Below are positions 46,918 to 64,000 of a stretch of DNA of 64,000 nucleotides, one piece after another; the stretch's first letter is position 1, and each line of letters begins with the position of its first letter. Source of the stretch: Myxococcales bacterium (GTDB lineage Bacteria > Myxococcota_A > UBA9042). The notes under the pieces were generated by a model. That model had not been told where the DNA came from, searched no databases, and worked only from the letters and a program-made list of their open reading frames with translations. Location of the stretch: contig JAGSHB010000003.1 of assembly GCA_023954815.1 (NCBI GenBank), forward strand, positions 8,998 through 72,997. Reading direction: 5' to 3'. A program made the position numbers and the translations under genes.

Positions 46918-48987
46918 GTGATTCACGTTCAGAATATCGAGAAGCGGTTCGGTCCTCAGGCGCTGTTTAGTGGTCTGAGCTGGCACATCAAACGTGGCCT
47001 CCGCTACGGTTTTGTCGGGCCCAATGGCGCAGGCAAGTCGACGCTCCTCAAGATCTTGATCGGTGAAATCTCTGCAGACGGCGGTGCCGTGGTGAAGGCC
47101 AAAGGGCTGACAGTCGGCTACCTCGCTCAGGAAGTAGATCCCTTTACGTTGGGTACGGTGCAGCAGAGTGTGCTCGAAGGCGTGCCCGGGTATGGCCGTG
47201 CGCGCGATCGCGTGACGGCTGTGCAAGAGCGCATGGCTGCGGATGATGCGTACGCACAAAGTGACGCCGGATTGCGCGACTTGGGCCGGGCCATCGATCA
47301 TTTTGAAGCGTTGGGCGGAGAGGGCCTGCTTGACCGTGCCCGGGAAGCCCTGGGAGGCCTCGGATTTACCCGCGACCAGATGCTGGAGCCGGCCAGCACG
47401 CTGTCCGGTGGCTGGCTGATGCGTGCGGCCCTGGCGCGCCTGCTGGTGATGCGCCCCGACGTGCTGCTGCTCGATGAGCCGACCAACCATCTCGATCTAG
47501 AGGCGTTGTCGTGGTTTGAGAACTTCCTCGAAGGCTATCCGGGCAGCGTGGTGGCCGTCAGCCACGATCGCTTCTTCCTCGACCGCATGCCCAACCGGAT
47601 CGCCGAGTTGACGCGCACGGGGGTTCACATCCACGTCGGCGGCTACGAAGACTACCTCGCCGGCCGCGAGCAGCGTATCGCGTTGCAGGTGGCAGAAAAG
47701 GCGCGCGTCGACCGAAAACGCGCCCATCTCGAGAGCTTCGTACGGCGTTTTCGCGCCAAAGCCACCAAGGCCAAACAAGCGCAGGCGCGGGTCAAGCAGC
47801 TGGCCAAGCTCGAGGATGTGCACGTTGACTCGGACACCAAGGGCATCGGGTTTTCGTTCCCGGCTGCCGGGCGAACGGGCAAAGAGGTCTTCAGCGTCAC
47901 CAACGTCAAGAAGGTCTACGACACGGACTACGGGGAGCTGGAGGTCTACAGCGATCTCAGCCTGACCATCTCCCGCGGCAGTAAAGTGGCGCTGGTCGGT
48001 CCCAACGGCGCGGGTAAGTCGACGCTGCTGAAGATCTTGGCAGGCACCACCTCGACCCAGGCCGGCACCGTTCGGCGGGGCACGAATGTACGGCTGGAGT
48101 ACTTCGCCCAGCACCAACTCGAAGCCCTCGATCGCCGTCTGAGCGTCTACCAGGAAGCGGCTCGCGCAGCCGGTAATGACACGGTGACGATGATCCGAAA
48201 CGTGCTCGGATCGCTACTATTTCAGGGTAAGAGCGTCGACAAGAAAGTGGCGGTTTTATCAGGCGGTGAGCGTGCGCGTCTGGCCTTGGCGAAGATGGTC
48301 CTGCGCGGGCCGAGCTGCATGCTGCTCGATGAGCCAACCAACCACCTCGATTTGCTCAGCCGTGAGGTGCTCGAAGATGCCATCGCGAGATTCGATGGCA
48401 CCGTCGTCCTGGTGAGCCACGATCGCTACTTCATCAACGCGGTAGCGACCCATGTGCTCGAGGTGATGCCAGGCGGCAAGACCACGCTCTTCGAGGGCGA
48501 CTACGATGCGTACCTCTATCGAAAGTCGGGCGGTGATCCGAAGCTGATCGAGGCGCTGCTTCGCGGAGAGGCGGTCGATCTGACGGCGCCACCTGGCCCG
48601 GCCACCGCACCGCAACCCAACGCCGCAGCTGCCTTTGTCGGTGGCGGTGAGGCGCCGGCCGCCGGAGAGAGTCGCGCCGACGTCAAGGCGCGAAAACGAG
48701 CGGAAGCCCAGCGTCGCAACGAGCTGTCTCGGCGTACAAAACCCCTGAAAAAGAGGCTTTCAGCGCTGGAGAAGGATATCGGAACAGCCGAGACGCGGCT
48801 CGGAGAGATCTCTGCCGCTCAGCTCGATCCGGCGCTGTACGAAGATGCCGTGAAGGTGCGCGCGTTGACGGAAGAGCACGGTCGGCTCACCGCTCAGGTC
48901 GAAGAGGCGATGACCAAGTGGGAGGAGCTCGCCATGCGCATCGAGGTGATTGAAGAGGAAGTCACAGCTGAGTTTGACGGGGAGTAG
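46918..48987 (+). CDS. ABC-F family ATPase (Uup/EttA-like; two ABC domains plus C-terminal coiled coil)
   Basis: Two Walker A sites (GPNGAGKST twice). Two LSGGxxxR signatures. No TM domain. GGAGG 6 nt before the GTG. Confidence 0.85.
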   Translation: MIHVQNIEKRFGPQALFSGLSWHIKRGLRYGFVGPNGAGKSTLLKILIGEISADGGAVVKAKGLTVGYLAQEVDPFTLGTVQQSVLEGVPGYGRARDRVTAVQERMAADDAYAQSDAGLRDLGRAIDHFEALGGEGLLDRAREALGGLGFTRDQMLEPASTLSGGWLMRAALARLLVMRPDVLLLDEPTNHLDLEALSWFENFLEGYPGSVVAVSHDRFFLDRMPNRIAELTRTGVHIHVGGYEDYLAGREQRIALQVAEKARVDRKRAHLESFVRRFRAKATKAKQAQARVKQLAKLEDVHVDSDTKGIGFSFPAAGRTGKEVFSVTNVKKVYDTDYGELEVYSDLSLTISRGSKVALVGPNGAGKSTLLKILAGTTSTQAGTVRRGTNVRLEYFAQHQLEALDRRLSVYQEAARAAGNDTVTMIRNVLGSLLFQGKSVDKKVAVLSGGERARLALAKMVLRGPSCMLLDEPTNHLDLLSREVLEDAIARFDGTVVLVSHDRYFINAVATHVLEVMPGGKTTLFEGDYDAYLYRKSGGDPKLIEALLRGEAVDLTAPPGPATAPQPNAAAAFVGGGEAPAAGESRADVKARKRAEAQRRNELSRRTKPLKKRLSALEKDIGTAETRLGEISAAQLDPALYEDAVKVRALTEEHGRLTAQVEEAMTKWEELAMRIEVIEEEVTAEFDGE

Positions 48988-50584
48988 TGACCCGGCGCAG
49001 CACCGCAACCAGCGCTGTGATGAGCAGCAACAGGAGCATCCCTCCGCCCTGGTGCGGACTCGGCGCCGCACTGCACCCTGAGTCCTTCACACCGGTCGGC
49101 GCGCAGTCGACTTCGAGCGCATCTGCCAGCGTATCGGACGCGCCACCCAGTTCAGCCACCAACCCCTGCTTACCGAACGCCAGCCCGGACGGCACGACCG
49201 CCGTCAGTTTCGTCGGGCTGAGCACTTCAATACCAACCAGCTTCTTCCCGCCGGCTTGCAGGGTGATGCCCTCAGCGAAGCCGCCCCCAAAGATGGTGAC
49301 CTCTGTCGTGGCTTTGCTGCTCACGCACCTGGGGTCCACCAGATCGAGCGCCAATTGTCCCCGGTTGACGGTGCCGGCGTCGATGCCGGCGTCGATGGCA
49401 ACGTCCGCCGTCGGCGCCGCTTTGACCTCGACTGCTTTGTCTTTGAACCCAACCTGACCGTTGGGGTTTTCGACGACGACGGCATACTCTCCCGGCGTGA
49501 GTCCAGGCAGAACCATGGTCGTAATTTTCAGCGGCGTGACCTTGGTGACTGAGGTCTTCGACGCGCCTACTTTGACCACCGCACCGGTCTGAAAGTTCTC
49601 TCCGATGACCTCGATCTCCGTGGGCTTGTCAGCCGAAACCACGGCGGGAGTCACCAAGGAAATAACCGGCTTCGGCGGCGGTCCCGTATCGGCTGGCCCC
49701 GTATCAGCTGGCCCTGTGTCGGCGGGTCCCGTATCCGCCACACCTGTGTCCGCTGTACCGCCTGCGTCCGTGCCACCGGCGTCGGTACTGCCCGCATCAG
49801 CGGTGGTGCCACCTCCGGTACCTTTGACGCCCATACGCAGGCGGAAATCGCCCTTCATCTGAAAAATCCCGTTGTTGAGGTCTTCGACGAACCGCCACTG
49901 CTTGCCGCCGGAGCACGTACCCAGGGGCCAAACGATGTGCATCAACTGCGTCTTGGGCGTCGTCTGGGTATCCGCCAACATCGCCAGCTCTTGGCAGCCA
50001 CAGCCGATATCGATACCAGCGATGGACACCATGGCGCAGTCCGTCTTGCCCCAGTACGTGCTGAGGTCTTGGGACTTGCTCAAAATGCGCACTATGATGC
50101 GAATGTTGCCCTTGGTGATCGCCGGCGGCTTGTCTCCCGGCTTGGTGCCGGTAAATTCGTAGACCATGACCGTGTTGCCTTGAATCGGCGTGCCAGGTTT
50201 ACCAGTCAATGGATTGAAGAAGTCCTGGGTCGTGACACTCCACAGGGGCTTGGTGCTCGTGGGGGCGGATGCGTCGCTGGCGTCATTCCAAATCTCAATG
50301 GCGGCGTTGATCTTGACGTCCATCGGCGACTTTGCGGCGGCAGACGCGGCCATGATCAGCTCAACGCTGGAAATCTCGATCGGGTAGTCGCTGGGTTTCG
50401 GCCGAAACAGGACACCGAAGGCCTCCCCGGCGACAAACCCGGGATGACCGAACTGCGGGTGCATCTTTGTGCCAGCGAGGCTGCCGAGATCGTCTGGCCC
50501 GTCATCGTATTTCCAGATGACCTTCGCGTTGGCGGTACTCGCCAAGCAAAGCAAAGCCAAAACGATACAGGTGGTCCGACGCAT
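48962..50584 (-). CDS. Secreted surface protein with IPT/TIG-like domains and a C-terminal MYXO-CTERM-type sorting signal
   Basis: Signal peptide MRRTTCIVLALLCLASTANA. C-terminus DSGCSAAPSPHQGGGMLLLLLITALVAVLRRV fits GCS + hydrophobic + RR. The last 26 nt overlap the ABC-F gene convergently. Confidence 0.7.
   Translation of the reverse strand: MRRTTCIVLALLCLASTANAKVIWKYDDGPDDLGSLAGTKMHPQFGHPGFVAGEAFGVLFRPKPSDYPIEISSVELIMAASAAAKSPMDVKINAAIEIWNDASDASAPTSTKPLWSVTTQDFFNPLTGKPGTPIQGNTVMVYEFTGTKPGDKPPAITKGNIRIIVRILSKSQDLSTYWGKTDCAMVSIAGIDIGCGCQELAMLADTQTTPKTQLMHIVWPLGTCSGGKQWRFVEDLNNGIFQMKGDFRLRMGVKGTGGGTTADAGSTDAGGTDAGGTADTGVADTGPADTGPADTGPADTGPPPKPVISLVTPAVVSADKPTEIEVIGENFQTGAVVKVGASKTSVTKVTPLKITTMVLPGLTPGEYAVVVENPNGQVGFKDKAVEVKAAPTADVAIDAGIDAGTVNRGQLALDLVDPRCVSSKATTEVTIFGGGFAEGITLQAGGKKLVGIEVLSPTKLTAVVPSGLAFGKQGLVAELGGASDTLADALEVDCAPTGVKDSGCSAAPSPHQGGGMLLLLLITALVAVLRRVTTPRQTQL
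49679..49753 (-). repeat. 15-bp tandem repeat (x5) encoding (P/V)ADTG pentapeptide repeats
   Basis: Units ggtcccgtatcggct, ggccccgtatcagct, ggccctgtgtcggcg, ggtcccgtatccgcc and acacctgtgtccgct. Confidence 0.8.
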
Positions 50585-50772
50585 AGCGGGTCTCCCTCGC
50601 CGCACTGGGGGACATGCGGTCAAATGGCTAGCAACTGCGGCGACAGATGTGGGGGAGACCGCGCGCTGGGCCCATCATACGGGGAGCCACGGCCCGTAAA
50701 CAAGCGCGCCGCAGGTTGTCGCAGCCACGCCAGGGCTTGACCTGCATCCCCCTCGTCGTTGAGCCTCGGCTC

Positions 50773-51945
50773 ATGAGCTATGCGACGTGGTCAGATGTAC
50801 GGGGACACAGCGCGCAAATCGGCGTGCTCCAGCGAATTTGTGCCAGCGCGCAACCGGCCCACGCCTACCTTTTTGAAGGCCCCGACGGCGTGGGCAAGCA
50901 GATGGTGGCCTGGGCACTAGCTGCCCGTATCGCGTGTGAAGCGCCGACAGCGGACCAAGCAGCCTGCGGCGAATGTCGGTCGTGCCATTCACTGCAGCGC
51001 GGGGAGCATCCCGACCTCAAAGTGCTCAAGAAAGATGGCGCCTCGATTCGTATCGGTCAGGTCCGTGATGCGCTCAAGCCCCTGCGGTTCGAGCCGGTGT
51101 TGGGGCGCGCCAAAGTCCTGATCGTCGATGACGCCCACCTGCTGCGAGAAGAGGCCGCCAACGCGTTGCTGAAGACCCTGGAGGAGCCGCCATCGCGCAC
51201 GCACTTCATCTTGGTCACGTCACGGGCGCAGCTGCTGCTGAGCACGATTCGGTCCCGCAGCCAAGTGGTGCGTTTTGCCGAGTTGGATACCCAGGACGTG
51301 GCAGCGGTGTTGCTCGCCGAGGACCAGCCCGCAGATCTAGTGGCCATGGCAGCGCCGCTCGCCGAGGGGAGCGTCGTGCGAGGGCGGACGCTGTGCGATC
51401 CCGACTGGCTCGCTGCGATCGACAGGCTGGTGCGTTTCGTTTTGGGTCTCGGCGCCGGCAACCCGCTTCGTATCGGTGACGCGGTCGCGGGGCTAGGCGG
51501 CACGCTTGACGGTCTCAGTCTGCAGATCTCGCCCGAGCAACAGCCCATGGTCGCTGCGCCTACAGCTTCCATTTCAGAGGCGAAAGCGCTTGCACAAGCC
51601 GAGAAGAAGGGCCGGTCAGCGCCAAAGAAGCTCGCCAGCAAACCCGAATCGGGTACCCGACTCAAGGGGCTCGATCGTGTCGGGTTGAGCTGGGCGCTCG
51701 ATGTGACGACGACCGTGCTGCGCGACGCCATGTTGGTTGCGACCGGGATGGATCCGGATGAGGTGCCGCTCTCACGTCATGCGGAAGGGCTGCTCAATAT
51801 GCGCGACCGTACCCACGCTGCGGCGATCGCTAAGGCCATCGATGCCTGTCTCGCGACGGAGGCGAGCTTGGTGCTCAACCCGAATCCACGGCTGGCTCTA
51901 GAAGCGACTTGGCTGGAGGTCGACCGGGCGATTCGCCACGCCTGA
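50773..51945 (+). CDS. holB: DNA polymerase III subunit delta' (HolB) with extended C-terminal region
   Basis: Motifs HAYLFEGPDGVGK, CGECRSC and VLIVDDAHLL (sensor). About 390 aa, against roughly 330 for typical HolB. Confidence 0.8.
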   Translation: MSYATWSDVRGHSAQIGVLQRICASAQPAHAYLFEGPDGVGKQMVAWALAARIACEAPTADQAACGECRSCHSLQRGEHPDLKVLKKDGASIRIGQVRDALKPLRFEPVLGRAKVLIVDDAHLLREEAANALLKTLEEPPSRTHFILVTSRAQLLLSTIRSRSQVVRFAELDTQDVAAVLLAEDQPADLVAMAAPLAEGSVVRGRTLCDPDWLAAIDRLVRFVLGLGAGNPLRIGDAVAGLGGTLDGLSLQISPEQQPMVAAPTASISEAKALAQAEKKGRSAPKKLASKPESGTRLKGLDRVGLSWALDVTTTVLRDAMLVATGMDPDEVPLSRHAEGLLNMRDRTHAAAIAKAIDACLATEASLVLNPNPRLALEATWLEVDRAIRHA

Positions 51946-51958
51946 GCTGACAAATTCG

Positions 51959-54184
51959 TCAGGCGTCGTCGGCTTCGGGCATCAGGTGACCAAATAGGGC
52001 CTCGTGAAGCTCCATCTTGACCTGACCACAGTTGTCCGGGCGGTGCTCGGGCTGCTTTTCAAGGCAGTGCATAATCACCTTGATCACATCAGGTGAAATA
52101 TCGGGGTTGTACTGCAGCGGATCGGGGACCGGCTCTAGCGCGTGGGCCACAAAGATGTTGCCCTCAGAAAACGGCAGGCGCCCGGTGAACATCCGGTACA
52201 AGATCACACCCAACGCGTAGATGTCCGCCTTGTGATTGACCGACGAGCCATCGATCTGCTCGGGCGCCATGTAGTACGGCGTGCCCGCGAGCACACTCTG
52301 CTCGCCAAATCCGTCATCGAACGCGCGCGCCAAGCCAAAGTCGAGCAGCTTCGCTGTACCATCCACAGCGATGAGAATGTTGTCGGGTTTGATGTCCCGG
52401 TGGAGCATGCCGCGGCTATGGGCGTGGTCGAGCGCGGCGGATATCTGCTCGATCACGCTCATCAAGAAGATGCGGTCGGTCACCGGTTGATTCGCTGGCA
52501 GGTGCGCCGTGAGCGGCAACCCCTCCACGTACTCCATCGAGTACCACGGCACGCCCTCTTCGTTGCCCATGTCGTAGATGTGCACGATGTTGGTGTGGCT
52601 CAGGCTGGCCGCCATCTTGATCTCACGCTCGAAGTAGCGCTTGGCGACGTCGGAGGGCATCGCCCCGTCGAGCATGAACTTCAACACAACGACACGGCTG
52701 AGCATGGTGTCGGTGGCACGAAAAACGACGCCGTTGCCGCCCTGGCCAAGTCGCTCCAAACCGGAGTAGCGACGCGAGAGACTCGGCGGCACACCCTCGG
52801 GCCAACCGTCGGGGCCCACTTCGATACCGACCTGCTTTTGCGGTCCCTCAACGACCTTGCCTTCGACGTACGCGACCGTGCCTTCGGAGAAGTTCTGCGT
52901 CGCCTCCGCCTCGATAGCGCTGGTGACCAATGGGCGCCGGCCACCGGTGTCGGGGGTCAGGAAGGGCAGCTCGTTGTCTTCGCCCTCCGGCATCTCGAAA
53001 AACTGTTGCCGCAGCCCCTCGTACCAAACGGTCTCAGTTGAGTTGGTGTCGATGAGGTCAACGATCTGCTGCAAAAGCACACGGCCGAGGCGAGGCTGCA
53101 CCAGATCGACACACAATTCGGCGGCGCGTCGGGTGGTGTGAATCCGTTGTTCCGGCGCCTGGTGGGCCTTCAGCAGGCGATAGAGATTGTGCAGCGCCCC
53201 CTTAGCATCGCCCTGCTGCTCGCGTAGGTCAGCGGCGAGCTGCATCGCTTCGGCAAACTGCTCGTCGGTCGTCGGCACACTCTCGGCGACCCGCAGGGCC
53301 TCTTCCATCTCACCGCGCGCGGCACGCAGCTTGACCACGGCGACGCGATCGCCGGCCTTGCTGAGGCAGCCGATGGCATTTTCAACCTGTCCGGCCTTTG
53401 ACCACATCCGCGCGGCATCACGAAATTGTCCCTGCTGTTCGAGCAACTGCGCGGCTTCTGCTCGCTGGCCGCCCTTGCCGAGTCGTTGCGCAGCCTCTTT
53501 GTGCCGACCGAGTCGCTGGAGCACCTTCGCGACGAGCACGACATCGCCGCCCTCTTCGAACGCCGTGAGGGCGCGCTCCCAGTTCTCCAACTTCGCCCAC
53601 GTCTTGCCCGCCGCGTCCCATTCACCTTTTGATTCACGCACTTCTGCGCTGAGTTCTAGGGCTTTTTGCGGCTCACCGGCTTTGCGGTACATCTCGACGG
53701 CATCTGCCTTTCGACCGGCTTTCACCAGCAGCATCGCCGCCTTGAGGTAGTTGTTGTGGCGCACTGCCAGCTTCGCGGCTTCCACGAATTGGCCGGACTT
53801 CTCAAGCGCTTCCAGCAGACCGCGATCATCGTCGCAATGGCGTAGGCAGAATGCAGCGCTGTCCCAATCCTTAGCATCGGCGAAGCAGTCCGCAGCCTTT
53901 TGCCACTTTTCGGCTTTGCGCCACGCCCGGCCGGCGTCAAGCTTTCTACCCTGGGACTCGAATAGTTCGGCGGCGCGCTTGTACAGCTTGTGGTCCATCG
54001 CGAGGCGCGCTGCCTTGAGCTTGTCGCCCTTGTCGATGGCCTTTTGGACCGCTCGCTCGCCTTTCGTATCTTCCTGTCGAGACAGGCGCTTTACCCACCA
54101 CTGAATGGCAAATCCGCCGCCAATGAGCACGATGCCGGCGACGATGAAGCTGATGGTGCGGGGAGTGAGGACAGATGGGTCCAT
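51959..54184 (-). CDS. Membrane-anchored TPR-like repeat protein with a C-terminal Ser/Thr kinase domain
   Basis: Start MDPSVL... with a TM segment (ISFIVAGIVLIGGGFAI). Helical repeat region. Kinase motifs GQGGNGVVF, VLK, HRDIKPDNI, DFGLA and GTPYYMAPE in the last ~280 aa. Confidence 0.85.
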   Translation of the reverse strand: MDPSVLTPRTISFIVAGIVLIGGGFAIQWWVKRLSRQEDTKGERAVQKAIDKGDKLKAARLAMDHKLYKRAAELFESQGRKLDAGRAWRKAEKWQKAADCFADAKDWDSAAFCLRHCDDDRGLLEALEKSGQFVEAAKLAVRHNNYLKAAMLLVKAGRKADAVEMYRKAGEPQKALELSAEVRESKGEWDAAGKTWAKLENWERALTAFEEGGDVVLVAKVLQRLGRHKEAAQRLGKGGQRAEAAQLLEQQGQFRDAARMWSKAGQVENAIGCLSKAGDRVAVVKLRAARGEMEEALRVAESVPTTDEQFAEAMQLAADLREQQGDAKGALHNLYRLLKAHQAPEQRIHTTRRAAELCVDLVQPRLGRVLLQQIVDLIDTNSTETVWYEGLRQQFFEMPEGEDNELPFLTPDTGGRRPLVTSAIEAEATQNFSEGTVAYVEGKVVEGPQKQVGIEVGPDGWPEGVPPSLSRRYSGLERLGQGGNGVVFRATDTMLSRVVVLKFMLDGAMPSDVAKRYFEREIKMAASLSHTNIVHIYDMGNEEGVPWYSMEYVEGLPLTAHLPANQPVTDRIFLMSVIEQISAALDHAHSRGMLHRDIKPDNILIAVDGTAKLLDFGLARAFDDGFGEQSVLAGTPYYMAPEQIDGSSVNHKADIYALGVILYRMFTGRLPFSEGNIFVAHALEPVPDPLQYNPDISPDVIKVIMHCLEKQPEHRPDNCGQVKMELHEALFGHLMPEADDA

Positions 54185-54492
54185 GGGTGCTGAGTGGCTC
54201 CGAGGGGGGGGGCAACGCCTGCCCACACTATACCACTGTTCGGATAATGACGAGTTTGAGCGGCTGAACTTTGAACCGCCCCGTCACGCTGTAACCGTGG
54301 CGGTCAGTCTATCGGCTCGATCGTTCGTGCTGGAACGATCTCCGTTGGCGGCGCCATTAGCGCGTCGGGGCGATCACCTGAGCGAGCGAAGGCGCCCACG
54401 GCAATTGGAGGTGTGAAGATCAGCAAGCTCGCAGCAGGGACCGGAACGTCAACGGCGCTGGAGCCGGCGTTCAAGTTGGCTAGCGAGATGGG

Positions 54493-54963
54493 CTAGCGAT
54501 TGACGACGAGCGTGCGCTGACCATCTGCAAAGACAACCGTGGCCTTGGTGCCCATCACCTCGTGGATGACGCCGGGGCCGAAGACCTTGTGGCCGATGAC
54601 CAACCCCGTCACCGCTTCGATTTTGGCATTGTAGGGGGTGCCGGTCGCAGGATCGCGATCGGCAAGCAGGCGCTCGTAGCGCTCGCGGGCGAGGGTCTCT
54701 TCGTCCTTACGCGGGAGGGCGCGGCGGCTGCCCACAGTCTTCTTCTTCGTCGCGGTTCCACCGGCCTTCTTGGTGGCTGCTGCCTTTGACAGGCGGTACT
54801 TGCGCTCTGAGCCACACGTATTGCACTTCACGCGGGCGGGCACGTCGCCAACCATCGCCAAGATGGTGTGAGCGAGTTCCGCTTTGCACTTGGTGCAGCG
54901 GGTATCGATGTCGCGGCCAACGGCGGGCACGGTGTCACTTTTGCGCAGGCGATGAAGGCTCAT
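54493..54963 (-). CDS. MJ0042-type zinc-ribbon domain protein
   Basis: RBS AGGAG 6 nt before the ATG. Motif CTKCKAELAH...VKCNTCGSERKY. The longer ORF-track N-terminus is probably non-coding. Confidence 0.55.
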   Translation of the reverse strand: MSLHRLRKSDTVPAVGRDIDTRCTKCKAELAHTILAMVGDVPARVKCNTCGSERKYRLSKAAATKKAGGTATKKKTVGSRRALPRKDEETLARERYERLLADRDPATGTPYNAKIEAVTGLVIGHKVFGPGVIHEVMGTKATVVFADGQRTLVVNR

Positions 54964-55295
54964 GGAAGGCTCCTGAGACGATGATGTGAAGAGTTGGGGG
55001 CGAACTGGGGCCGGGCAAAACGCGAGCCGACCGGAGGGGCCGCGAACCATAGCCGTGGTCGCCGCGCACAGCAAGCATCTTTGGGCGTAGGGCGGCACAT
55101 TCGCTGGACTCAAGGGCTGGGGTTTTCGGTTGGGTGCGCTCACAATACGCGGAATTGTTGGCCGAGTCAGCGACTTTAACTGTCGTGCCCAAGTTCGCGC
55201 CGCGATGTCCCTTGTCGGCCTGCGTTGGCCGGCGCTACCATCGCCGCGGCATCGCATCTTCGCCGCCCCGCGTCTTTCCTCTAAGGAGGTTGTTC

Positions 55296-55823
55296 ATGTT
55301 GTCCCAGTCTACCGTTCGGCGATCCATCGTCCGGCGCTCGTTTGTCCAGCGAGTGGCGCTGATTTTGGTCCTCAGCTTTGGTCTCGCCGGTTGCGATGCA
55401 CTCAAAATGACGGTCGACAAGGTGCGGATGAAGCTCATCGGTATCACGGTCACCGATCCGGAGCGCGAGTCAGCCGAGTGGGTGTTGATGCAGGCGATTG
55501 AAGCCGCTGCCGACAAGAACGCCGAGCGCGGTTGGGAGAAGTTTCAGAAGGTCCTGCACACCTCCGAGCGGTCTCCCAACGCCTTGCGCAGCTGGTACAC
55601 CGGCGCGTGGCCTCGCATGCGGCGCCAGGTGTCGGACTACGACATCAACGGCGACGGCAGCTTTAAGATCGTCAACGTCAAGGAGATGGTGAAATCCTCG
55701 GGCGGCACCGCTGGCCTGGAGTTCTATATCGTCAGTCGAAAAAAGGAGATGCCGACGCCCTGCGCTGTGTATCTCGATGAAAACCATGACGACAAGTGGC
55801 GAATTCGTCGCTGCAGCCTGTGA
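55296..55823 (+). CDS. Hypothetical lipoprotein
   Basis: Strong RBS TAAGGAGGT 5 nt before the ATG. Signal and lipobox LILVLSFGLAGC. Confidence 0.65.
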   Translation: MLSQSTVRRSIVRRSFVQRVALILVLSFGLAGCDALKMTVDKVRMKLIGITVTDPERESAEWVLMQAIEAAADKNAERGWEKFQKVLHTSERSPNALRSWYTGAWPRMRRQVSDYDINGDGSFKIVNVKEMVKSSGGTAGLEFYIVSRKKEMPTPCAVYLDENHDDKWRIRRCSL

Positions 55824-55829
55824 GGAATC

Positions 55830-56261
55830 GTGCTGCGAGTCGCCCTTGAACGCGGATTATCCGCCCTTGTTGCCCGGTGGATGCTGGAGGGTCGCGCCGA
55901 TGCGGTCCTCGATCGGGTGATGCAGTCTGGCGCACTGTCGGCCGTAGAAGTCGAGAAATTGCGCAAACAGACCCTCGCACGGCTGCATCAAGTCAGCGAA
56001 GACGGCGCGCCTTATGCCGATATGGTGGGTGCGGCGCTGAGCGGTATGCGGACGGCCTTGCCGGATGTCGCCCAAGTCTTGCGCTCCACCGATGCTGGCA
56101 GCGCACGCGTGATCGCAGCTGCCGTTGCTGACGAACTCGCCCGGCGTGCAGCCGAGGCGGCCCGTTCAGCAGCCGAACAATGGCAGGCACCTGCCGAATC
56201 GACGGACGCTAAGGTCGAAAAACCAGCGGAAGATGAGTCGAAGGACGCGGAGATGTCATGA
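55830..56261 (+). CDS. Hypothetical Ala-rich protein
   Basis: ORF whose stop overlaps the ubiB-like start (ATGA). No recognizable domain. Confidence 0.4.
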   Translation: MLRVALERGLSALVARWMLEGRADAVLDRVMQSGALSAVEVEKLRKQTLARLHQVSEDGAPYADMVGAALSGMRTALPDVAQVLRSTDAGSARVIAAAVADELARRAAEAARSAAEQWQAPAESTDAKVEKPAEDESKDAEMS

Positions 56262-57952
56262 GCGCGATCGCGAAGATTCTGAGCCTCCCGCAATACGCCC
56301 GAAACGTGGGTCGGCTGAGGTTTTTGATCGCCGTCGTGATCCGCCATGGTTTTGGTCATGTGCTCGAACGGGCTGGCCTGCTGCAGTTGTTGCGGATGGC
56401 GCCGGGGCTTCGCGCGGACGAATCGGTCGCCAACAAGCGGTGGGAAGTTCGAGTTCGCCTCGCGCTTGAGAGTTTAGGCCCGACCTTCGTCAAGCTCGGA
56501 CAGATGCTCGCGACCCGGCCCGATATCATCCCGATGAGTCTGATTCACGAGCTGCGGAAGCTGCAGGACGATGTGCCCGCGGTCCCCTTTGCCGACGCCG
56601 AGCGCCTGGTTCGGAGCGAGTTGGGTGTGCCGCTGGAGACGGCTTTCGCTCATATCGATCCGACGCCACTAGCCGCTGCCTCCATCGCCCAGGTCCATCG
56701 GGCGCGCCTGCAGACGGGCGAAGAGGTGGTGCTCAAGATTCAGCGCCCGAACCTCGATGAGACGATCCGCACGGACCTGGAGCTCCTGCGCTTTGTGGCC
56801 AATCAGCTCGAAGAGCGGGTTCCCGAGGTGCGCCAATTCCGCCCGCTCGCCGCTGTGGAGGAGTTCGCTCGCAACCTCAAACGCGAGACCAACTTCGACA
56901 ATGAGCTGAACAATATCGAGCGTTTCACGCGCCAGTTTGCCGATAACGACAAGGTCCATGTGCCGGTGACCTGGCCCGAGTTCTCCAGTCGCCGCGTGTT
57001 GGTGATGGAGTTCATCGACGGCTGCAAAGTCACCGATCTCGAACAGCTCGAAAAATGGCAGCTTTCGGGCGCAGAGGCCGCCAACGTGGGCACCGAGCTC
57101 GTCATGAGCTCGATTTTTGAGCACGGTTTTTTCCACGGCGACCCCCATCCGGGGAACTTCTTCGTGCTGCGGGATGGCCGGCTGGCGGTGATCGACTTTG
57201 GCATGATGGGTTCGCTCGATCGCGACCGGATCGAAGACTTGCTCGGGTTTATGGCGTCGATCCTGATGAACGACCCCGAGATGTTGGTCACCCAGCTGCT
57301 GGACATGGGGATCATCGATGACGCCGTCGATCTGCGGGCGCTGCGGGCTGAGGTCAGCGAGCTCATGGGCCGCTACTACGGACTCGATCTCGCCAAGGTC
57401 GACATCGGCGTCTTCATCACAGAGACCTTTGAGACGATCGTGCGGTTCGGTGTCTTCTTGCCGGCGGATCTGCTCCTGATCGCCAAGTCGATCTCGACCA
57501 TGGAGGGCATCGCCCGCGAGATCCATCCGGATTTCAACCCGATGGAGGATTTGCGGCCGTACTTCATTCGGCTTTACGTGCAGCGCGCCCTCGACCCACA
57601 GACCTACTCACGGCGCGCGTTTCGGGTGCTGCATGACTACTGGTCCCTGATCCAACGGACGCCAAACGATGTACGCGGCACGCTCCGGCGGCTGCACGCT
57701 GGCGAGCTGAGTTTTGACGTGCGCGATCCCGGGGCAGATCTGCTGCACCAGCGGACGGAGCGGCGGACCAATCGCGCCATTGTCGCCGCATCCTGTTTGG
57801 CGACGTGGGGGCTCTTCGCCTGGCTCCTGCCCACAGCGGAGCAGCGCGGCTGGATGAGCGTGGTGACGTGGTGGACCGCATTGGTGGGAATCACCGGCCT
57901 TTGGACCGGCACGCTGCTGGGATTCAGCCTGCTGCGTTCCCGTGAGTTGTAA
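56258..57952 (+). CDS. UbiB/ABC1 (AarF) family atypical protein kinase
   Basis: Motifs PTFVKLGQMLATRPD, AAASIAQVH, HGDPHPGN and IDFG. C-terminal TM helices. Confidence 0.85.
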   Translation: MSAIAKILSLPQYARNVGRLRFLIAVVIRHGFGHVLERAGLLQLLRMAPGLRADESVANKRWEVRVRLALESLGPTFVKLGQMLATRPDIIPMSLIHELRKLQDDVPAVPFADAERLVRSELGVPLETAFAHIDPTPLAAASIAQVHRARLQTGEEVVLKIQRPNLDETIRTDLELLRFVANQLEERVPEVRQFRPLAAVEEFARNLKRETNFDNELNNIERFTRQFADNDKVHVPVTWPEFSSRRVLVMEFIDGCKVTDLEQLEKWQLSGAEAANVGTELVMSSIFEHGFFHGDPHPGNFFVLRDGRLAVIDFGMMGSLDRDRIEDLLGFMASILMNDPEMLVTQLLDMGIIDDAVDLRALRAEVSELMGRYYGLDLAKVDIGVFITETFETIVRFGVFLPADLLLIAKSISTMEGIAREIHPDFNPMEDLRPYFIRLYVQRALDPQTYSRRAFRVLHDYWSLIQRTPNDVRGTLRRLHAGELSFDVRDPGADLLHQRTERRTNRAIVAASCLATWGLFAWLLPTAEQRGWMSVVTWWTALVGITGLWTGTLLGFSLLRSREL

Positions 57953-58082
57953 AACGATCCCGTAAACTCGACGCAGGCCCAATTCGACGTACAAACGACC
58001 CTGTGCGGCAGCGATCCGACGATGGGTCGACGATCAGCTGGTCGCCAGCCGCGAGACCTCGTGGCTCATCGTGGAGTGCGCC

Positions 58083-59030
58083 ATGGCCATCACCCCCAAG
58101 TTGTCCACCAAAGCCAGCCGGGTTGGTCCCGCCCGGTACACTCGGATGGTCTCGCTTGGCCTGTTGCTCGCGATGACGGCCACATTGCCGGGTTGCATCG
58201 CGATTTCCAAAGACGCCTACGACCGCGACATGGCCGCGATGCGCAAACAGCACGACTGGCTGGAAGGCCAAAAGCGCGAGCTGCAAGGTCAGCTGATGGC
58301 GTGCCAGAAAAAGAGCGCCGGTCAAAATGAGGCGATCGCCCGTTGTCGGAAGAATGGTGACGACCTGAAGCAGCAGCTGCAGGAGTGTCACGGCAAGCTC
58401 AAGCGCATCGCCGAGAGCTGCGGCAAGAGCGGCATCTTGCTCAGTCAGTGTGAGCAGCAGCTGGCCCAGGAGCGCGCGAAGATCGCGGCGCTCAAGGACC
58501 AGAACTCGCAGCTCCAGGGTCGCATCGCCGCCATCGAGGCGCGCCTGCAGGCCATGCGCGACAGCTTCGCTAGGCTACAAAAACAGCTGGCGGCCCTGGT
58601 GGCGAGCGGCAAGCTGCGCATCGTGGTCAAGGACGGCATGTTGGTCATCCAAATGCAGTCGGATGTGCTCTTCGATGCCGGTAAATACGCGCTGAAAGAC
58701 GAAGCCAAGCCAGTGCTGCGGGATCTAGCCAAGGTGCTGAAAGGGTTCACCGGGCGGCGCTTTCAGGTCGCGGGGCACACCGATCCCAGCGGCGGCGGTG
58801 ACATCAACTGGCCGCTGTCGGCCAAGCGGGCGCTCAGCGTGGTGCAGTTTCTGATCAAGGACACGGCCATGCCGCCGAAGATGCTCTCGGCTGGCGGTTT
58901 TGCTTCGTACCTACCGACCACCGCCAATGACACCAAAGAAAACCGCGCTCGAAATCGGCGTGTTGAGTTTGTGCTGATGCCCGACTTGAGCAAGCTGTTG
59001 GAGCTCGCGGGAATCAAGCAGCCCAAGTAA
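58083..59030 (+). CDS. Lipoprotein with coiled-coil region and C-terminal OmpA/MotB peptidoglycan-binding domain
   Basis: Lipobox LLLAMTATLPGC. Long coiled coil. OmpA domain (GHTDPSG..., NRRVEFVL). The start could alternatively be the ATG at 58146. Confidence 0.75.
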   Translation: MAITPKLSTKASRVGPARYTRMVSLGLLLAMTATLPGCIAISKDAYDRDMAAMRKQHDWLEGQKRELQGQLMACQKKSAGQNEAIARCRKNGDDLKQQLQECHGKLKRIAESCGKSGILLSQCEQQLAQERAKIAALKDQNSQLQGRIAAIEARLQAMRDSFARLQKQLAALVASGKLRIVVKDGMLVIQMQSDVLFDAGKYALKDEAKPVLRDLAKVLKGFTGRRFQVAGHTDPSGGGDINWPLSAKRALSVVQFLIKDTAMPPKMLSAGGFASYLPTTANDTKENRARNRRVEFVLMPDLSKLLELAGIKQPK

Positions 59031-59196: not shown

Positions 59197-59273
59197 CGGG
59201 GCGTAGCGCAGTCTGGTAGCGCACTTGACTGGGGGTCAAGTGGTCGCAGGTTCAAATCCTGTCGCCCCGACCA
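59197..59273 (+). tRNA. tRNA-Pro (anticodon GGG)
   Basis: Manually folded cloverleaf: C1:G72, A73 discriminator, D-stem GCGC/GCGC, anticodon stem CUUGA/UCAAG, loop CUGGGGG (U33, G37), T-loop TTCAAAT, encoded CCA. Confidence 0.9.
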
Positions 59274-59407: not shown

Positions 59408-61093
59408 ATGCTTGAGCGCAACGACCTCATGGAGCAGCGCCTCGCCAAGATCACGGCTGTCACAGCCGCTGGCGACGTCGCCTACCCCAACGATTTTGTG
59501 CCCAACAAGACTGGCGCTGAGCTCGTCTCCGAACTCGCCGCCGAGCTTGGTCCACATTCGCCCGACCGCGCAGCGCCAGCCGTTCGCATGGCGGGTCGTC
59601 TCATCGGCCTCAACCGGAAGGGCAAGGTGGGCTTCTTGCGCATTCGCGATCGCAGCGCTTCGGCCGTGCGCACCGCCCGCACGGCTGCCGACGCCGCTCG
59701 TGCTGCGGCCGACATGCCCACCCGTGACAGTGACGCGACCACCTACCAGGTCTTCTTCCGTCGCAACGAGGATGAGGCGCTATTTGACGCGCTGTTCAAG
59801 GGCCCCCAATCCCTCGACGTCGGGGATATCATCGGCTGCGTGGGTCGGCCCTTCCGTACGCGGACCGGCGAGCCGAGCCTCTGGGCGACGACGCTGACCG
59901 CAGAAGGCGAGCCCCTGGACGGCGCTGTAGCAGGCGAGCCCTGCGTGCGCGTGTTGACCAAGTCGGTGCGGCCCCTGCCCGAGAAGTTCCACGGTCTCAA
60001 GGACAAGGAGACGCGTTACCGGCAGCGCTACGTCGATCTCATCGTCAACGACGACGTGCGCGCTACTTTCGAGCAAAGAGCCCGGATTATCAGCGGTATC
60101 CGCGCGTTTTTCGCTGGTCGTGACTACCTTGAAGTCGAGACGCCCATGATGCACAGCATCGTCGGTGGCGCGACAGCGCGGCCCTTTGAGACGCACCACA
60201 ACGCGCTGAACATTCCGCTCTTTCTGCGCATCGCGCCGGAGCTGTACCTCAAGCGTCTGGTGGTCGGTGGCTTCGAGCGGGTCTTCGAGATCAACCGCAA
60301 CTTCAGAAATGAGGGCATCAGCCAGCAGCACAACCCCGAATTCACCATGCTGGAGTTCTACCAGGCGTTCGCGACCTACACGGACCTCATGGCGCTGCTT
60401 GAGCAGCTGTTTTCGACCTTGGCCGAGCAGGTCCACGGCACAACGGACTTGGTGTGGGGCGCCGATACGGACAACGCCCAGCAGATCAGCATGGCCGCCC
60501 CTTTTGCGCGCATCAGTGTCTACGAGGGGATCGAGCGCTGGGGTGGACTCACCGGTGAGCAGCTTCACGATGAAGCCCTGCTGCGTGAAAAGCTGGAGGC
60601 CCACGGCATCGACATGAAGGCTGGCACGCCCGTCGGCAAGCTGCAGATGGAGCTCTTCGAGACCGTCGCTGAGCCGCACCTGATTCAGCCGACGTTTGTG
60701 ACGGACTTTCCGGTCGAGGTTTCGCCGCTTTCGCGCAAGAAAGACAGCGATCCGCGCCTGACAGACCGTTTTGAGATGTACATGGCGGGCTTTGAGGTCG
60801 CCAACGCGTTCTCCGAGCTCAATGACCCGGTCGACCAGTACGAGCGCTTCTTGGCGCAGGTGCAGGCCAAGGACGGCGGCGATGACGAGGCCATGGACAT
60901 GGACCTCGACTACATTCGTGCGCTGGAATACGGCCTGCCACCGACCGCGGGCTGCGGCATCGGTATCGACAGGCTGGTGATGGTGCTGACCAACACGCAG
61001 AGCATTCGCGAAGTCATCCTCTTTCCGCTGCTGCGCCCTGAGCGTCGGAAGACAGAGGAGGCCACAGACGCCCCCTCAGACGCCGAGGCCTAG
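59408..61093 (+). CDS. lysS: Lysine--tRNA ligase (class II LysRS)
   Basis: RBS AGGAG 5 nt before the ATG. Class II motifs ([15 protein letters not shown], GxGIDRLVM). N-terminal OB anticodon-binding domain with inserted low-complexity segments. Confidence 0.9.
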
Positions 61094-61096
61094 ACC

Positions 61097-63634
61097 TTGT
61101 ATCACCGCCGGCTGGTCTGGCTTGTCTCTTTGGCCGCACTCGCCGTGCTGCCCGAGAGTCTGGTCCGTCACGCCGATCCGCGGATTGGGTTCCAGGCGTG
61201 GATGGTTGTTCAGCTGCTCGGCGTCATCGCCGCAGCCATCGGCATCGCCGCGATGTTCTCCACGATTGGGCTTGCGCTGGTTCGCCTGTTCACTGCGCCC
61301 GTTCGGGACAACCCCAGTGTCTTTGTCGCTTGGTCGTTCCTCAAAGCTGCACGGCCGGGTGATCCACTGCCAATTCGACTAGTTCGCGCCCTCGGCCGCG
61401 AGGTCGATGGGCTACCGCGTGATGGCAATGGTCCGTCGCTGAAGCGTCGCGCTGGTGTCGGCTTGCTCTGCGTGGCCATCGCTGGTGGCCTGCTGACCTT
61501 GCTGCTGCTCGGATGGTTGACCAGCGATTTGCCCGTGCGCTTCGCTCGCAATGAGGCCATCGCGCTGGCGTTGCACGGCGCGCTGCTGCTGTCCGCCGCC
61601 TTGCCCTGGCGCAAGGCCCGCTTCGCTCCGGCTGCCATTGCGGCCCTGCTTGCACTGGTCGCGACTGGCGTGGTCGGCTTGATCCCCGTCCTGCGCCCCT
61701 GGGTCCACGGCATCGGCCTCCCGGCGGCGCTGGTCGCCTGCGCGGGACTGCTTGGCTGGGTGCTCACGCGGCCGATCTATACAAGAATCGCCCGTATTTC
61801 CGGGCTGATTGCGCTGATTGTGGGGGCCTGTGGCATCGCCGCTGGCGCGCTGGCGATTGGGCCGTTGGGCTGGACGCCGGGGGTGGTCTGCGTCGGTGTC
61901 GGCGCCTATTTGACCCTGTCGAGCCAGCCGAAAGTGACCCTCCCCGTGTTCGTGAGCATCGTCGGCGTCGCAGCCGGAACCTGGGCGTTGATCGTCGTTC
62001 TGAGCGTCATGGGCGGATTCGCGGGCGACCTGCGCGAGAAGATGCTGGTCGCTAATGCCCACGCCCTTGTGGAGCGTCCCGGGCGCGCCCACCCCCTGGC
62101 CGATGCTGCCGCGCTGAGCGCCCAGCTTCGGCAGGTGAGCGGTGTCGTTTCGGTGAGTCCGCAGGTACGCGGCGACGCGATCGTCAGCTCACCGTTCAAC
62201 GTCAACAACTTCGTCGCCATCCGCGGTGTCGATCCCACCTTGGCGGAAGTGAAGAAACAGGTCGGTGGCACCATCGTCACCGGTTCGCTCGCCCTGTTAT
62301 CAGCCCCCGAGAAGATGGGGCGGCCGACGTGGCGGGTCCGGCGGCCAGAAGGCGGCCCGACCGACTTGCCGGCGGTGCCGTCGGCCAAACCCACCACCGC
62401 AACCATCGATGATGGCCGTGACCTCGACGACGCCGACATGGACGCGCTGATGCAGTTGGCCCCCGGCCCAGCGTCGCCGAAGCCTCCGAAAGCGCCGCCG
62501 GTGGTGCACGAGCCCTTGATGCTCGACAGCCACGGCAAGGCGATGGCTGGCCCAGGTGATCCGGAAGCGCATCTGCCGGGTCAGGAGCACGACAGCCATC
62601 GGCAGCCGGGCTCCGTCGTCGAAAACGGGCCAGCGCCAGCCGGTGAAGCCCCAGACGGAAAAGCGCCGGGTGACAGCGAAGCGCCTGGTGATAGTGAAGC
62701 GCTGGGAGATACGGAGCTCGCCGTCCCCGGCAGCGTCAAAATGCTCCCCGCCATCGGTGGCGCTGGCGGACTCGATCCGGCCTTGGCGCTGCCCCTGCTG
62801 CTCGACGAAGAAGAGGACATCGACGTGCCCGTGGCCCCCGGCATCGTCTTGGGTGTGGAGCTGGCTCGTGCGCTGCAAGTGGAGCTCGGCGATCGCGTCG
62901 AGGTGATCACGCCCGACGCTGATATCGGCCCGACGGGGCTCCGTCCGCGTGTGCGGACGTTCCGGGTTGCTGGCACCTTCGAGACCGGCCTGTACGAAGC
63001 CGATAGCAAGGTCGCCTACATCGATCTGGTCGAAGCGAGTCGTTACTTCAATCTGGAGGGCTCAGCCAATGTCATCGAGCTGCGTCTGAAGGAGCCCAAA
63101 GAGCCGGATGCGGTCCTAGGTGCCCTGAAATCCGCCCTCAAAGTCGCAGGTGCGCCAGCGGACACCGAGCTGATCGACTGGCGTGCACTCAACCGCTCAC
63201 TCTTTTCGGCGTTGGCGTTCGAACGGCTGGTCATCTTCTTGGTGCTGGCGTTGATCATCTTGGTGGCGTCCTTTTCCATCGTCTCGGCGTTGACCATGGT
63301 GATCATGCAAAAAAAGAGCGGCATCGCCATGCTGCGCGCCATGGGTTCGGACGCCGGGATGATTCGTTCGGCCTTTGTACAAATGGGCGGTGTCATCGGA
63401 ATGATCGGCACCACCGCCGGGTTGATTCTGGGTCTCGCAACGTGTCTGCTCATCGACACCCTGGGCATTGCGCTTCCGGAGGCGTACTACGTGCGCACGC
63501 TGCCCGTCGCGATCTCCCCGGTGGAGGTTTCGGCGGTCGTGGTCGCTTCTCTAGCTATCTCCCTTGTTGCGACTGTATTTCCTGCTAAAAGTGCTGCCCG
63601 TCTCCGCCCGCTTGAAGGCCTAACTCATGAGTGA
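61097..63634 (+). CDS. LolC/LolE-family (FtsX-like) ABC transporter permease, unusually long (N-terminal polytopic extension plus ~180-aa acidic/Pro-rich periplasmic insertion); start uncertain
   Basis: LolC/E core starts near LPVFVSIVGVAAGTWALIVVLSVMGGF and ends with the FtsX C-terminal 4-TM bundle. Roughly 250 aa of TM-rich sequence precede the core in the same open frame, beginning at a TTG. Confidence 0.65.
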   Translation: MYHRRLVWLVSLAALAVLPESLVRHADPRIGFQAWMVVQLLGVIAAAIGIAAMFSTIGLALVRLFTAPVRDNPSVFVAWSFLKAARPGDPLPIRLVRALGREVDGLPRDGNGPSLKRRAGVGLLCVAIAGGLLTLLLLGWLTSDLPVRFARNEAIALALHGALLLSAALPWRKARFAPAAIAALLALVATGVVGLIPVLRPWVHGIGLPAALVACAGLLGWVLTRPIYTRIARISGLIALIVGACGIAAGALAIGPLGWTPGVVCVGVGAYLTLSSQPKVTLPVFVSIVGVAAGTWALIVVLSVMGGFAGDLREKMLVANAHALVERPGRAHPLADAAALSAQLRQVSGVVSVSPQVRGDAIVSSPFNVNNFVAIRGVDPTLAEVKKQVGGTIVTGSLALLSAPEKMGRPTWRVRRPEGGPTDLPAVPSAKPTTATIDDGRDLDDADMDALMQLAPGPASPKPPKAPPVVHEPLMLDSHGKAMAGPGDPEAHLPGQEHDSHRQPGSVVENGPAPAGEAPDGKAPGDSEAPGDSEALGDTELAVPGSVKMLPAIGGAGGLDPALALPLLLDEEEDIDVPVAPGIVLGVELARALQVELGDRVEVITPDADIGPTGLRPRVRTFRVAGTFETGLYEADSKVAYIDLVEASRYFNLEGSANVIELRLKEPKEPDAVLGALKSALKVAGAPADTELIDWRALNRSLFSALAFERLVIFLVLALIILVASFSIVSALTMVIMQKKSGIAMLRAMGSDAGMIRSAFVQMGGVIGMIGTTAGLILGLATCLLIDTLGIALPEAYYVRTLPVAISPVEVSAVVVASLAISLVATVFPAKSAARLRPLEGLTHE

Positions 63635-64000
63635 ACCCAGCAATCCAGCAGCGCTTCAGCCCGCAGGCGCGCCCGATGCGTCAGGCGAGCGTCCGGTGTT
63701 GCTTGATGCGCGCGGGGTGTGCAAGTGGTTTGAGGTGGGTGGTCGGCGCATCGATGTGCTCAAGGGCGTCGATTTGCAGGTTCGCCAGGGGGACATGATC
63801 GCCGTGATCGGTCGCTCTGGATCGGGAAAATCTACGTTACTTCATCTTCTGGGCGCCCTAGACACTCCCTCTGCGGGCTCAATCGCGTACCATGCGCGGC
63901 CTCTGGCGGATCGGAGCGACGACGAGGTCGCTGCCTTTCGCAATCAGACCATCGGATTTGTGTTTCAGTTTCACCACTTACTGCCGGAACTAACGGCCTT
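63627..64000 (+). CDS. lolD: Lipoprotein-releasing system ATP-binding protein LolD-like ABC ATPase (partial, runs off the window)
   Basis: ATG overlaps the permease stop. Walker A GRSGSGKST. Confidence 0.8.
   Translation, partial: MSEPSNPAALQPAGAPDASGERPVLLDARGVCKWFEVGGRRIDVLKGVDLQVRQGDMIAVIGRSGSGKSTLLHLLGALDTPSAGSIAYHARPLADRSDDEVAAFRNQTIGFVFQFHHLLPELTA

Follow-up and report, generated by a model that had tools for sequence, protein, structure and literature searches.

We have analysed a 64,000-nt stretch of DNA from a Myxococcales bacterium (assembly GCA_023954815.1, contig JAGSHB010000003.1, positions 8,998 to 72,997), referred to here as the window, and describe a permease gene located near its 3' end. 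The gene is an open reading frame (ORF) of 845 codons at positions 61097..63634 of the forward (+) strand. As judged from its sequence, it very probably encodes the housekeeping LolF-type permease of a LolD2F2 lipoprotein-release ATP-binding cassette (ABC) transporter, with two lineage-specific additions, in an uncultured lineage of Myxococcota. These additions are a membrane module that precedes the canonical first transmembrane helix (TM1) and an insertion in the periplasmic domain. LolCDE and LolDF, both essential and both current targets for antibiotics, provide the structural paradigm of type VII ABC transporters with four transmembrane helices (TMs) per protomer. The architecture of the 845-amino-acid (aa) protein, with 12 predicted TMs, is off this norm, since LolC, LolE and LolF have about 400-415 aa (Acinetobacter LolF, about 410) and 4 TMs. 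All features described below lie on the + strand unless marked otherwise.

The LolF core

Family searches identified the canonical part of the protein, and the LolC/E-like core that the initial annotation had proposed for this ORF was borne out. The FtsX family (Pfam PF02687) was matched above its cut-off at aa 715-836 (8.5e-12). The MacB_PCD family (PF12704) was matched from aa 285 (2.3e-9; 38.3 bits, compared with a cut-off of 27), and this match fell in two stretches; a 180-aa insertion splits the MacB-like periplasmic domain. By far the best-scoring NCBIfam family was lolCE, TIGR02212 (1.1e-79). Among relatives of solved structure, the best sequence match was the homodimeric Acinetobacter LolF (1.5e-47), followed by Escherichia coli LolC (4e-35) and LolE (4e-29), and a Foldseek search with the AlphaFold2 (AF2) model gave LolE, LolC and MacB as top matches. 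The E. coli proteins (PDB 7ARH, 7MDX), which have the type VII ABC mechanotransmission architecture, share the fold of the query at Foldseek E values of 1e-12 to 1e-9.

In alignments with Acinetobacter LolF (PDB 9w37, 9w35, 9w2w; PMC13575116), aa 280-401 of the query corresponded to LolF residues 23-140, and aa 582-845 to residues 146-411. The canonical TM1, VFVSIVGVAAGTWALIVVLSVMGGF (aa 282-319; 61940..62053), aligned from LolF residue 23 and had 87% mean identity within the family. It is followed by the N-terminal half of the periplasmic MacB-like core (aa 320-401; 62054..62299), which was matched by PF12704 and aligned up to LolF residue 140. The C-terminal half of this domain (aa 582-694; 62840..63178) aligned to the LolF hook region and contains the sequence PDADIGPTGLRP (aa 606-617; nt 62912-62947), which aligned to the LolF hook, PEATPSPAGVVP. 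In LolDF and LolCDE the hook is a beta-hairpin that recruits LolA, formed by P170-P181 of LolF (PEATPSPAGVVP) and P167-P179 of LolC (PMC13575116). In our family alignment of 41 sequences, which was also the source of the invariant columns cited below, hook residues P606, D607, D609, G611, P612, G614 and P617 were invariant and gave the pattern P-x5-P-x-G-x2-P. The hook match is at the level of sequence, as the confidence of AF2 was low at this place. The TM2-TM4 bundle (aa 695-838; 63179..63610) was supported by Pfam FtsX and by alignment to LolF residues 253-411, and it includes the coupling-helix region, the TM3-TM4 door-bar loop and an invariant tryptophan, W695, aligned to W253, the TM2 neck tryptophan of LolF (PMC13575116). 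The query thus has in common with Acinetobacter LolF TM1, the Porter/Sabre domain, the hook pattern, the neck tryptophan, the door-bar loop (about 8 residues shorter in the query) and the C-terminal helix.

The gene arrangement is also that of LolF. The ORF downstream is an ABC ATPase gene, lolD (63627..64000, cut by the window end), whose best family match was LolD, TIGR02211 (6.5e-35 over the 124 aa before the window end). We found no second FtsX-type permease gene or paralogue in a search of the 64-kb window. The presence of a single permease gene, in lolF-lolD order and without a second lolC/E gene flanking lolD, marks the LolF subtype; E. coli LolCDE, in contrast, contains a heterodimer encoded by two specialised genes that flank lolD, where the query has one gene with two large additions. 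By its sequence, then, the protein is a member of the LolF/LolC/LolE superfamily (MacB/FtsX, type VII ABC) and is of LolF type rather than LolC or LolE specifically. Other MacB/FtsX-type permeases, namely YbbP, BceB and ADOP, resemble the query in having more than four TMs per chain. These proteins carry a second FtsX domain, whereas the query contains one PF02687 stretch only; the ADOP family TIGR03434 matched its C-terminal part alone (23 bits, compared with a cut-off of 622), and the Foldseek match to YbbAP was weak (E 0.03). The query is not a duplicated FtsX permease.

Distribution of the gene cluster

We used tblastn to scan one genome per species from 185,579 species, and obtained 231 relatives. 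All full-length matches (from query residues 1-23 to residues 844-845) came from uncultured metagenome-assembled genomes (MAGs), most of them recorded as Myxococcales or Myxococcota from lakes and groundwater. Several of the MAGs that bear the cluster are labelled Enterobacteriaceae, Klebsiella pneumoniae, Pseudomonadota or simply "bacterium" in public records, and the non-myxobacterial labels are probably taxonomic mislabels. Identity to the closest locus was 68% by tblastn and 70.5% when the two sequences were aligned pairwise over their full length.

Among 80 related loci, nearly all had lysS upstream and lolD downstream of the permease gene, and 59 also had a BamA match downstream. In the closest relative (L022, 8537-11736), bamA follows lolD with a 4-nt overlap and encodes five POTRA repeats and an Omp85 domain; our window ends before the corresponding position. 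This outer-membrane biogenesis cluster, lysS-lolF-lolD-bamA, is kept from Thermodesulfobacteriota to Myxococcota, and in Nitrospirota and Thermodesulfobacteriota the slot under discussion holds a canonical LolF of 407-416 aa. The 845-aa protein is therefore the positional orthologue of these proteins, and most likely the orthologue of the housekeeping LolF.

Other Myxococcota LolF classes share the core and the cluster context with the query family and differ from it in their number of extra TMs. Within the phylum, the TM1 motif was located at ORF residue 41-43, 93-113, 190-270, 300-325 or 385-621, which describes a graded N-terminal growth. In a class of ~650 aa (P0065-P0113), a canonical elbow directly adjoins TM1 and is itself preceded by a polytopic extension of ~235 aa. 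Homology between this extension and the N-terminal module of the query was considered and rejected (hhalign P 0.06, probability 1%). Since different, non-homologous additions are found in other Myxococcota, N-terminal elaboration of LolF looks recurrent in this phylum. We found no literature linking Myxococcota to the architecture of LolF, LolC or LolE.

The N-terminal module

A search of 5.8 billion proteins yielded about 50 homologues of 780-870 aa, which had 50-69% identity to the query, covered 96-100% of it and aligned from residue 1. In all, about 280 aa precede the canonical TM1, so that the polytopic extension described in the initial annotation is present but longer than the ~250 aa estimated there. 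With the family alignment as input, AF2 gave a full-length model with predicted local distance difference test (pLDDT) values of 83-97 over aa 1-300; for the first 322 residues alone, the mean pLDDT was 84.7 and the predicted template modelling score 0.72. The helices modelled were aa 3-23, 28-65, 73-82, 91-102, 115-139, 144-168, 172-193, 207-223, 228-253 and 256-275, followed by TM1 at 282-319. Upstream of TM1 there are thus 8 long hydrophobic helices and 2 short amphipathic ones, where the initial annotation had given about seven extra helices.

The first 2 hydrophobic helices, TM-A (aa 3-23) and TM-B (aa 28-65), form a predicted helical hairpin (61103..61291; pLDDT 83-94) that contains many of the invariant columns of the upstream region: V37, Q39, L40, L41, G42, V43, I44, A46, A47, A51, A52, S55 and G58. 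TM-B is almost invariant, and the spacing of its small residues (G42, A46/A47, A51/A52, S55 and G58) is of a kind typical of tight helix packing, which suggests that TM-B may be closely packed. The hairpin is followed by a predicted cytoplasmic segment with the 2 amphipathic helices (aa 73-82 and 91-102; 61313..61402), which includes an elbow-like sequence, FVAWSFLKAAR; residues P68, F76, W79, F81 and P90 were invariant here. The other 6 hydrophobic helices, TM-C to TM-H (aa 115-139, 144-168, 172-193, 207-223, 228-253 and 256-275; 61439..61921), had pLDDT values mostly of 90-97. They are variable in sequence, with R151, N152, R175 and R230 invariant or nearly so (R151 and R175 invariant in the 41 sequences).

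The charge pattern was consistent with this arrangement. Averaged over the 41 family sequences, the number of Lys plus Arg residues in the proposed cytoplasmic parts was 1.7 for the N-terminus, 8.9 for aa 63-118, 2.4 for aa 169-176, 3.1 for aa 224-233 and 1.1 for aa 276-282. The corresponding numbers for the proposed periplasmic parts were 1.0 for aa 24-31, 0.3 for aa 140-147, 1.2 for aa 194-206 and 0.5 for aa 254-257. The predicted topology is N-in, with eight extra TMs, of which two precede and six follow a basic cytoplasmic segment of 56 aa, to give 12 TMs per protomer; with this arrangement TM1 is reached in its canonical in-to-out orientation. By eye, TM-A had no convincing A-x-A site, and Pro occurred at or beside the candidate positions; it is unlikely to be a cleavable signal peptide.

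The origin of the module was sought in several ways. Scans of the module alone (aa 1-282) against Pfam and NCBIfam found no family, and it matched no solved fold. Its derivation as a degenerate copy of TM1 or of TM2-4 was rejected (hhalign P 0.29 and 0.72, respectively). An exhaustive profile search over 1.84 billion representative proteins gave 8 matches, all with E <= 2e-42 and all to the family itself or to fragments of it; distant or standalone relatives of the module were not found among these 1.84 billion proteins. Of the initial proposal of a real, fused and elaborated permease coupled to lolD, the reality, elaboration and coupling hold, and the fusion remains putative.

Candidate positions of the elbow

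Canonical LolC, LolE and LolF proteins start with an amphipathic elbow helix (WFIALRYLxAKRRQ) directly before TM1. In LolDF the elbow is in contact with the Q-loop of LolD (PMC13575116). Its counterpart in the query may be either of two segments. One is aa 263-281, where profile-profile alignment extended backwards from TM1 placed Y271-L272 on RYL of the canonical motif, with low per-column confidence. The spacing from RYL to VLSVM, 30 residues, is then canonical; the segment is hydrophobic and is predicted as the last extra TM. The other candidate is aa 75-86, the FVAWSFLKAAR sequence in the cytoplasmic segment. A narrow hidden Markov model (HMM) of the canonical elbow gave no match in the query family above shuffled controls, and its iteration did not recruit the family.

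We consider aa 75-86 the more probable counterpart of the elbow. The displaced-elbow reading depends on a transitive chain of sequence comparisons through other Myxococcota classes only. The unit formed by TM-B and the motif FVxWxFL(R/K)xxR is common to the query family, to a class with one extra TM (500-570 aa, Anaeromyxobacteraceae), and to classes of 670-725 aa and 910-970 aa. The family profile of this unit matched all three: the class with one extra TM at 8e-6, that of 670-725 aa at 4e-7 within a targeted set of 167 sequences (P 5.4e-6 by hhalign), and that of 910-970 aa at P 1.3e-5 by hhalign. In the one-extra-TM class, the motif ALRFLVGF aligned to the canonical RYL with just an 8-residue insert, within an alignment of P 2e-21. 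Also, the HMM of the canonical elbow matched WFVAWRYLMAPR (22.6 bits) in a relative of 994 aa (P0063), where the matched stretch, aa 72-83, precedes TM1 by 395 residues. If aa 75-86 is the elbow, TM-C to TM-H would have been inserted between elbow and TM1, and TM-A and TM-B would be the true N-terminal extension. The initial description of an N-terminal extension is thus right in that additional residues precede TM1, but part of them may be an insertion; direct comparison was ambiguous. Relative to Acinetobacter LolF, the elbow motif of the query has either degenerated or moved to a place about 190 aa upstream of TM1.

The periplasmic insertion

The gap in the LolF alignment between residues 140 and 146 defined aa 402-581 of the query (62300..62839) as a 180-aa insertion, at the place where the initial annotation had reported an acidic, Pro-rich insertion of that size. 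It contains 16.7% Pro, has 32 Asp plus Glu as compared with 13 Lys plus Arg (net -19), and is predicted to be disordered (pLDDT <50). Across the family the insertion measures 87-180 aa (median 147), with 19.5% Pro and a net charge of -2 to -25. The periplasmic region as a whole was 297-409 aa in the query family, compared with 207-210 aa in 6 of 7 canonical proteins (the seventh had 345). Shorter insertions were seen at the same site in several other Myxococcota LolF classes. Pfam and NCBIfam scans of the insertion alone found no family.

There is a conserved motif in this loop, DMDALMQLAPGPASPKPPKAPP (aa 444-466; 62426..62494), with the consensus LDALLQLAPGPxxPxPPQ and a short AF2 helix at aa 444-452. 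Its clearest island is (D/E)(L/M)DALLQLAPGPxxPxPPQ at aa 447-466, within which P456, G457 and P464 are invariant. Further downstream there is an 18-nt tandem repeat (62661..62711; 2.8 copies, 81% matches) that encodes APGDSE repeats and suggests that replication slippage adds to the variation in loop length. The insertion is located just upstream of the strand that enters the LolA-binding hook. In composition the loop, which includes PKPPKAPP, is reminiscent of the (EP)n/(KP)n region of TonB, a Pro-rich, charged, low-complexity periplasmic spacer; the loop of the query differs in being held at both ends within a folded domain, in being net acidic and in having its own conserved motif.

Proposed function

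Because the canonical machinery is intact (TM1, Porter/Sabre domain, hook, neck tryptophan, TM2-4 and coupling to lolD), the protein is expected to work as LolDF does. In LolCDE and LolDF, acylated lipoproteins are extracted into a cavity between TM1 and TM2 and are expelled to hook-bound LolA upon ATP binding (PMC13575116, PMC11784454). By analogy, the LolD2F2 complex would take acylated lipoproteins into its TM1/TM2 cavity, and ATP binding by LolD would collapse this cavity and push the lipoproteins toward LolA docked at the hook. The roles of the additions can be proposed only tentatively. The N-terminal module may pack against TM1 and the elbow region; a hint in this direction is that pLDDT values for the helices of aa 73-139 were higher in the full-length model than in the model of the module alone. 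Possibly, the module is a built-in accessory that stabilises or tunes the transmission of force from LolD to TM1 and lateral entry into the cavity. Close to where LolA docks, the acidic loop and its LDALLQLAPGP motif might modulate or recruit a partner in the periplasm.

A conserved 12-TM LolF would indicate that the scaffold tolerates, and under selection keeps, large membrane and disordered periplasmic additions at two sites, one around the elbow and TM1 and the other immediately ahead of the hook in the Sabre subdomain. For Myxococcota, the graded series would amount to a natural experiment on how TMs can be added to an essential transporter while its topology is preserved, and may bear on the adaptation of lipoprotein sorting in a phylum with unusual envelope biology. 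A more far-reaching proposal, which we regard as doubtful, is that the 2 additions together make LolF a more self-contained sorting machine with a channelled hand-off unlike that of LolCDE or LolDF. The eight-helix module flanking TM1 and a displaced elbow would then form an intramembrane entry or docking site for lipoproteins, which would be fed directly by maturation enzymes or would select lipoproteins in an unusual myxobacterial membrane, and the LAPGP motif would bind a partner in the periplasm or outer membrane, for instance LolA or part of the BamA machinery encoded alongside. If this were so, the Myxococcota series of 4, 5, 7-8 and 12 or more TMs per protomer would represent the stepwise evolution of a new functional domain in a type VII ABC transporter.

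Selection on the additions

Alternatively, the protein might be a genuine LolF in which the additions are tolerated passengers, arising by neutral accretion of helices and repeat-driven growth of the loop. The variability of the additions would fit with this idea. Mean identity to the query was 0.87 for TM1 and 0.67-0.77 for the core, and fell from 0.72 at aa 36-60 and 0.51 at aa 61-100 to about 0.25 at aa 101-275 and 0.22 in the insertion; TM-C to TM-H and the loop, at about 25% identity, are the least conserved parts. The loop also ranges in length and contains the tandem repeat described above, and the non-homologous N-terminal additions found elsewhere in Myxococcota suggest a permissive site. 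We estimated dN/dS by the Nei-Gojobori method for eight family pairs. The N-terminal module gave values of 0.10-0.25 in 7 of the 8 pairs (0.50 in the other), the insertion 0.10-0.38 and the core 0.00-0.19, and the range of 0.1-0.25 is not that of neutral sequence. Moreover, polar or charged residues within the module (Q39, R151, N152, R175 and R230) are invariant or nearly so, as is TM-B, the loop retains its conserved motifs and a constant acidic charge, and AF2 predicts a well-packed module. We conclude that module and loop are both real protein, conserved and under purifying selection, and that it is unlikely that they are mere passengers on the LolF core.

Substrate specificity

The LolF assignment itself has some observations against it. 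The TIGR02212 score, 268.3 bits, is below the NCBI equivalog cut-off of 362.45; Thr306 in the coupling helix of Acinetobacter LolF is replaced by Ala748 in the query; and the genome scan found no cultured member of the clade. The shortfall in score coincides with the split periplasmic domain and the missing canonical N-terminus. Taken with the very atypical 12-TM architecture, and with the presence in Myxococcota of several LolC/E-like paralogues of differing architecture, the low score could be read to mean that the protein is a MacB/FtsX permease, perhaps a specialised exporter, whose substrate is not a lipoprotein, and that the additions mark a shift away from Lol. Yet the best matches in sequence and structure were all to LolF, LolC or LolE, the hook and neck tryptophan are invariant, LolD is the best match of the partner ATPase, and the gene occupies the position of canonical LolF in the lysS-lolF-lolD-bamA clusters of other phyla. 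A substrate outside the Lol pathway thus seems very unlikely, and a housekeeping LolF remains the preferred assignment. A recent phylogenomic survey of LolC, LolE and LolF removed sequences of >500 aa or <300 aa before HMMs were built (PMC13575116). With such a length filter, and with scores that fall below the NCBI cut-off, elongated forms of LolF are expected to be systematically under-annotated.

Translational start

The lysS stop codon, TAG at 61091-61093, is followed by one codon (ACC) and then, in the same frame, by the TTG of the permease, so that the start proposed in the initial annotation, at 61097, is the first one possible. The 3' end is likewise as annotated: the stop codon TGA (63632-63634) gives an 8-nt overlap with lolD, which starts with ATG at 63627. 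Conservation at the N-terminus supports the TTG start, since residues 1-35 are conserved and this is already evident at residues 4-6 (R4, R5 and L6). The G+C content at third codon positions (GC3) of the N-terminal region was 0.763, compared with 0.776 for six neighbouring genes, and by codon-usage log-odds the annotated frame was the best of the six frames in each of four segments.

The initial annotation had allowed for an internal start of translation near 61850, in which case the upstream frame would be a separate gene or an artefact. By the test set out in that annotation, whether orthologues begin internally and leave the upstream codons unconserved as protein, this alternative fails, since the orthologues do not begin there. 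A start near TM1 (about 61850-61950), which would leave the upstream 250-280 codons to a separate gene or to an open frame of high-GC DNA, is hardly credible: although GTG or TTG codons are present at aa 257, 263, 272, 280, 284 and 286, high-GC DNA yields long spurious ORFs (many overlap this region in other frames), and one database entry (P0001) is called from an internal ATG at aa 36, the continuous frame is kept as protein, with invariant residues, in the roughly 50 homologues from independent assemblies, its dN/dS upstream is well under 1, GC3 and codon usage favour it, AF2 is confident of the module fold, the module never stands alone among the 1.84 billion proteins searched, and initiation at aa 280 would leave TM1 without a preceding elbow segment. 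One 845-aa polypeptide is very probably translated from TTG 61097. A minor short isoform alongside the full-length protein is possible.

The sequence TAG ACC TTG (61091-61099) has a further feature, in that the lysS stop is in frame with the permease and readthrough would join LysS to it. The 2 genes lie 3 nt apart, and this junction is probably only one of tight translational coupling.

Neighbouring genes

The gene upstream of the permease in the cluster, lysS (59408..61093), encodes a class II lysyl-tRNA synthetase (Pfam tRNA-synt_2, 5e-93). The listed 622-aa lysS ORF opens at 59225, within a tRNA-Pro (GGG) gene (59197-59273) just upstream, so that the real start is probably the ATG at 59408 (MLERND...). 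Inspection by eye revealed what we take to be, relative to a typical LysS, an Ala/Arg-rich low-complexity insert in the N-terminal OB-fold region (about 59780-59900) and, presumably, a second short insert (about 60000-60060); the Pfam match to the anticodon-binding domain was partial only. This neighbouring essential gene may therefore be "decorated" as well.

Farther upstream are genes for a TIG/IPT-domain protein (48962-50623, - strand), a DNA polymerase III delta-prime-like AAA protein (50647-51945), a protein with TPR and Ser/Thr protein kinase domains (51959-54226, - strand) and an ABC1/UbiB-type atypical kinase (56258-57952). The ORFs at 54493-55257 (- strand) and 55134-55823 had no match in a Pfam scan. 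Between the atypical kinase gene and the tRNA gene, positions 58071-59030 encode a protein of 319 aa that combines a long coiled coil with a C-terminal domain of the OmpA family and has a lipobox-like LPGC near its N-terminus. Its gene lies just ahead of the cluster; the product is likely to be a lipoprotein and, as such, would be a potential substrate of the Lol system.

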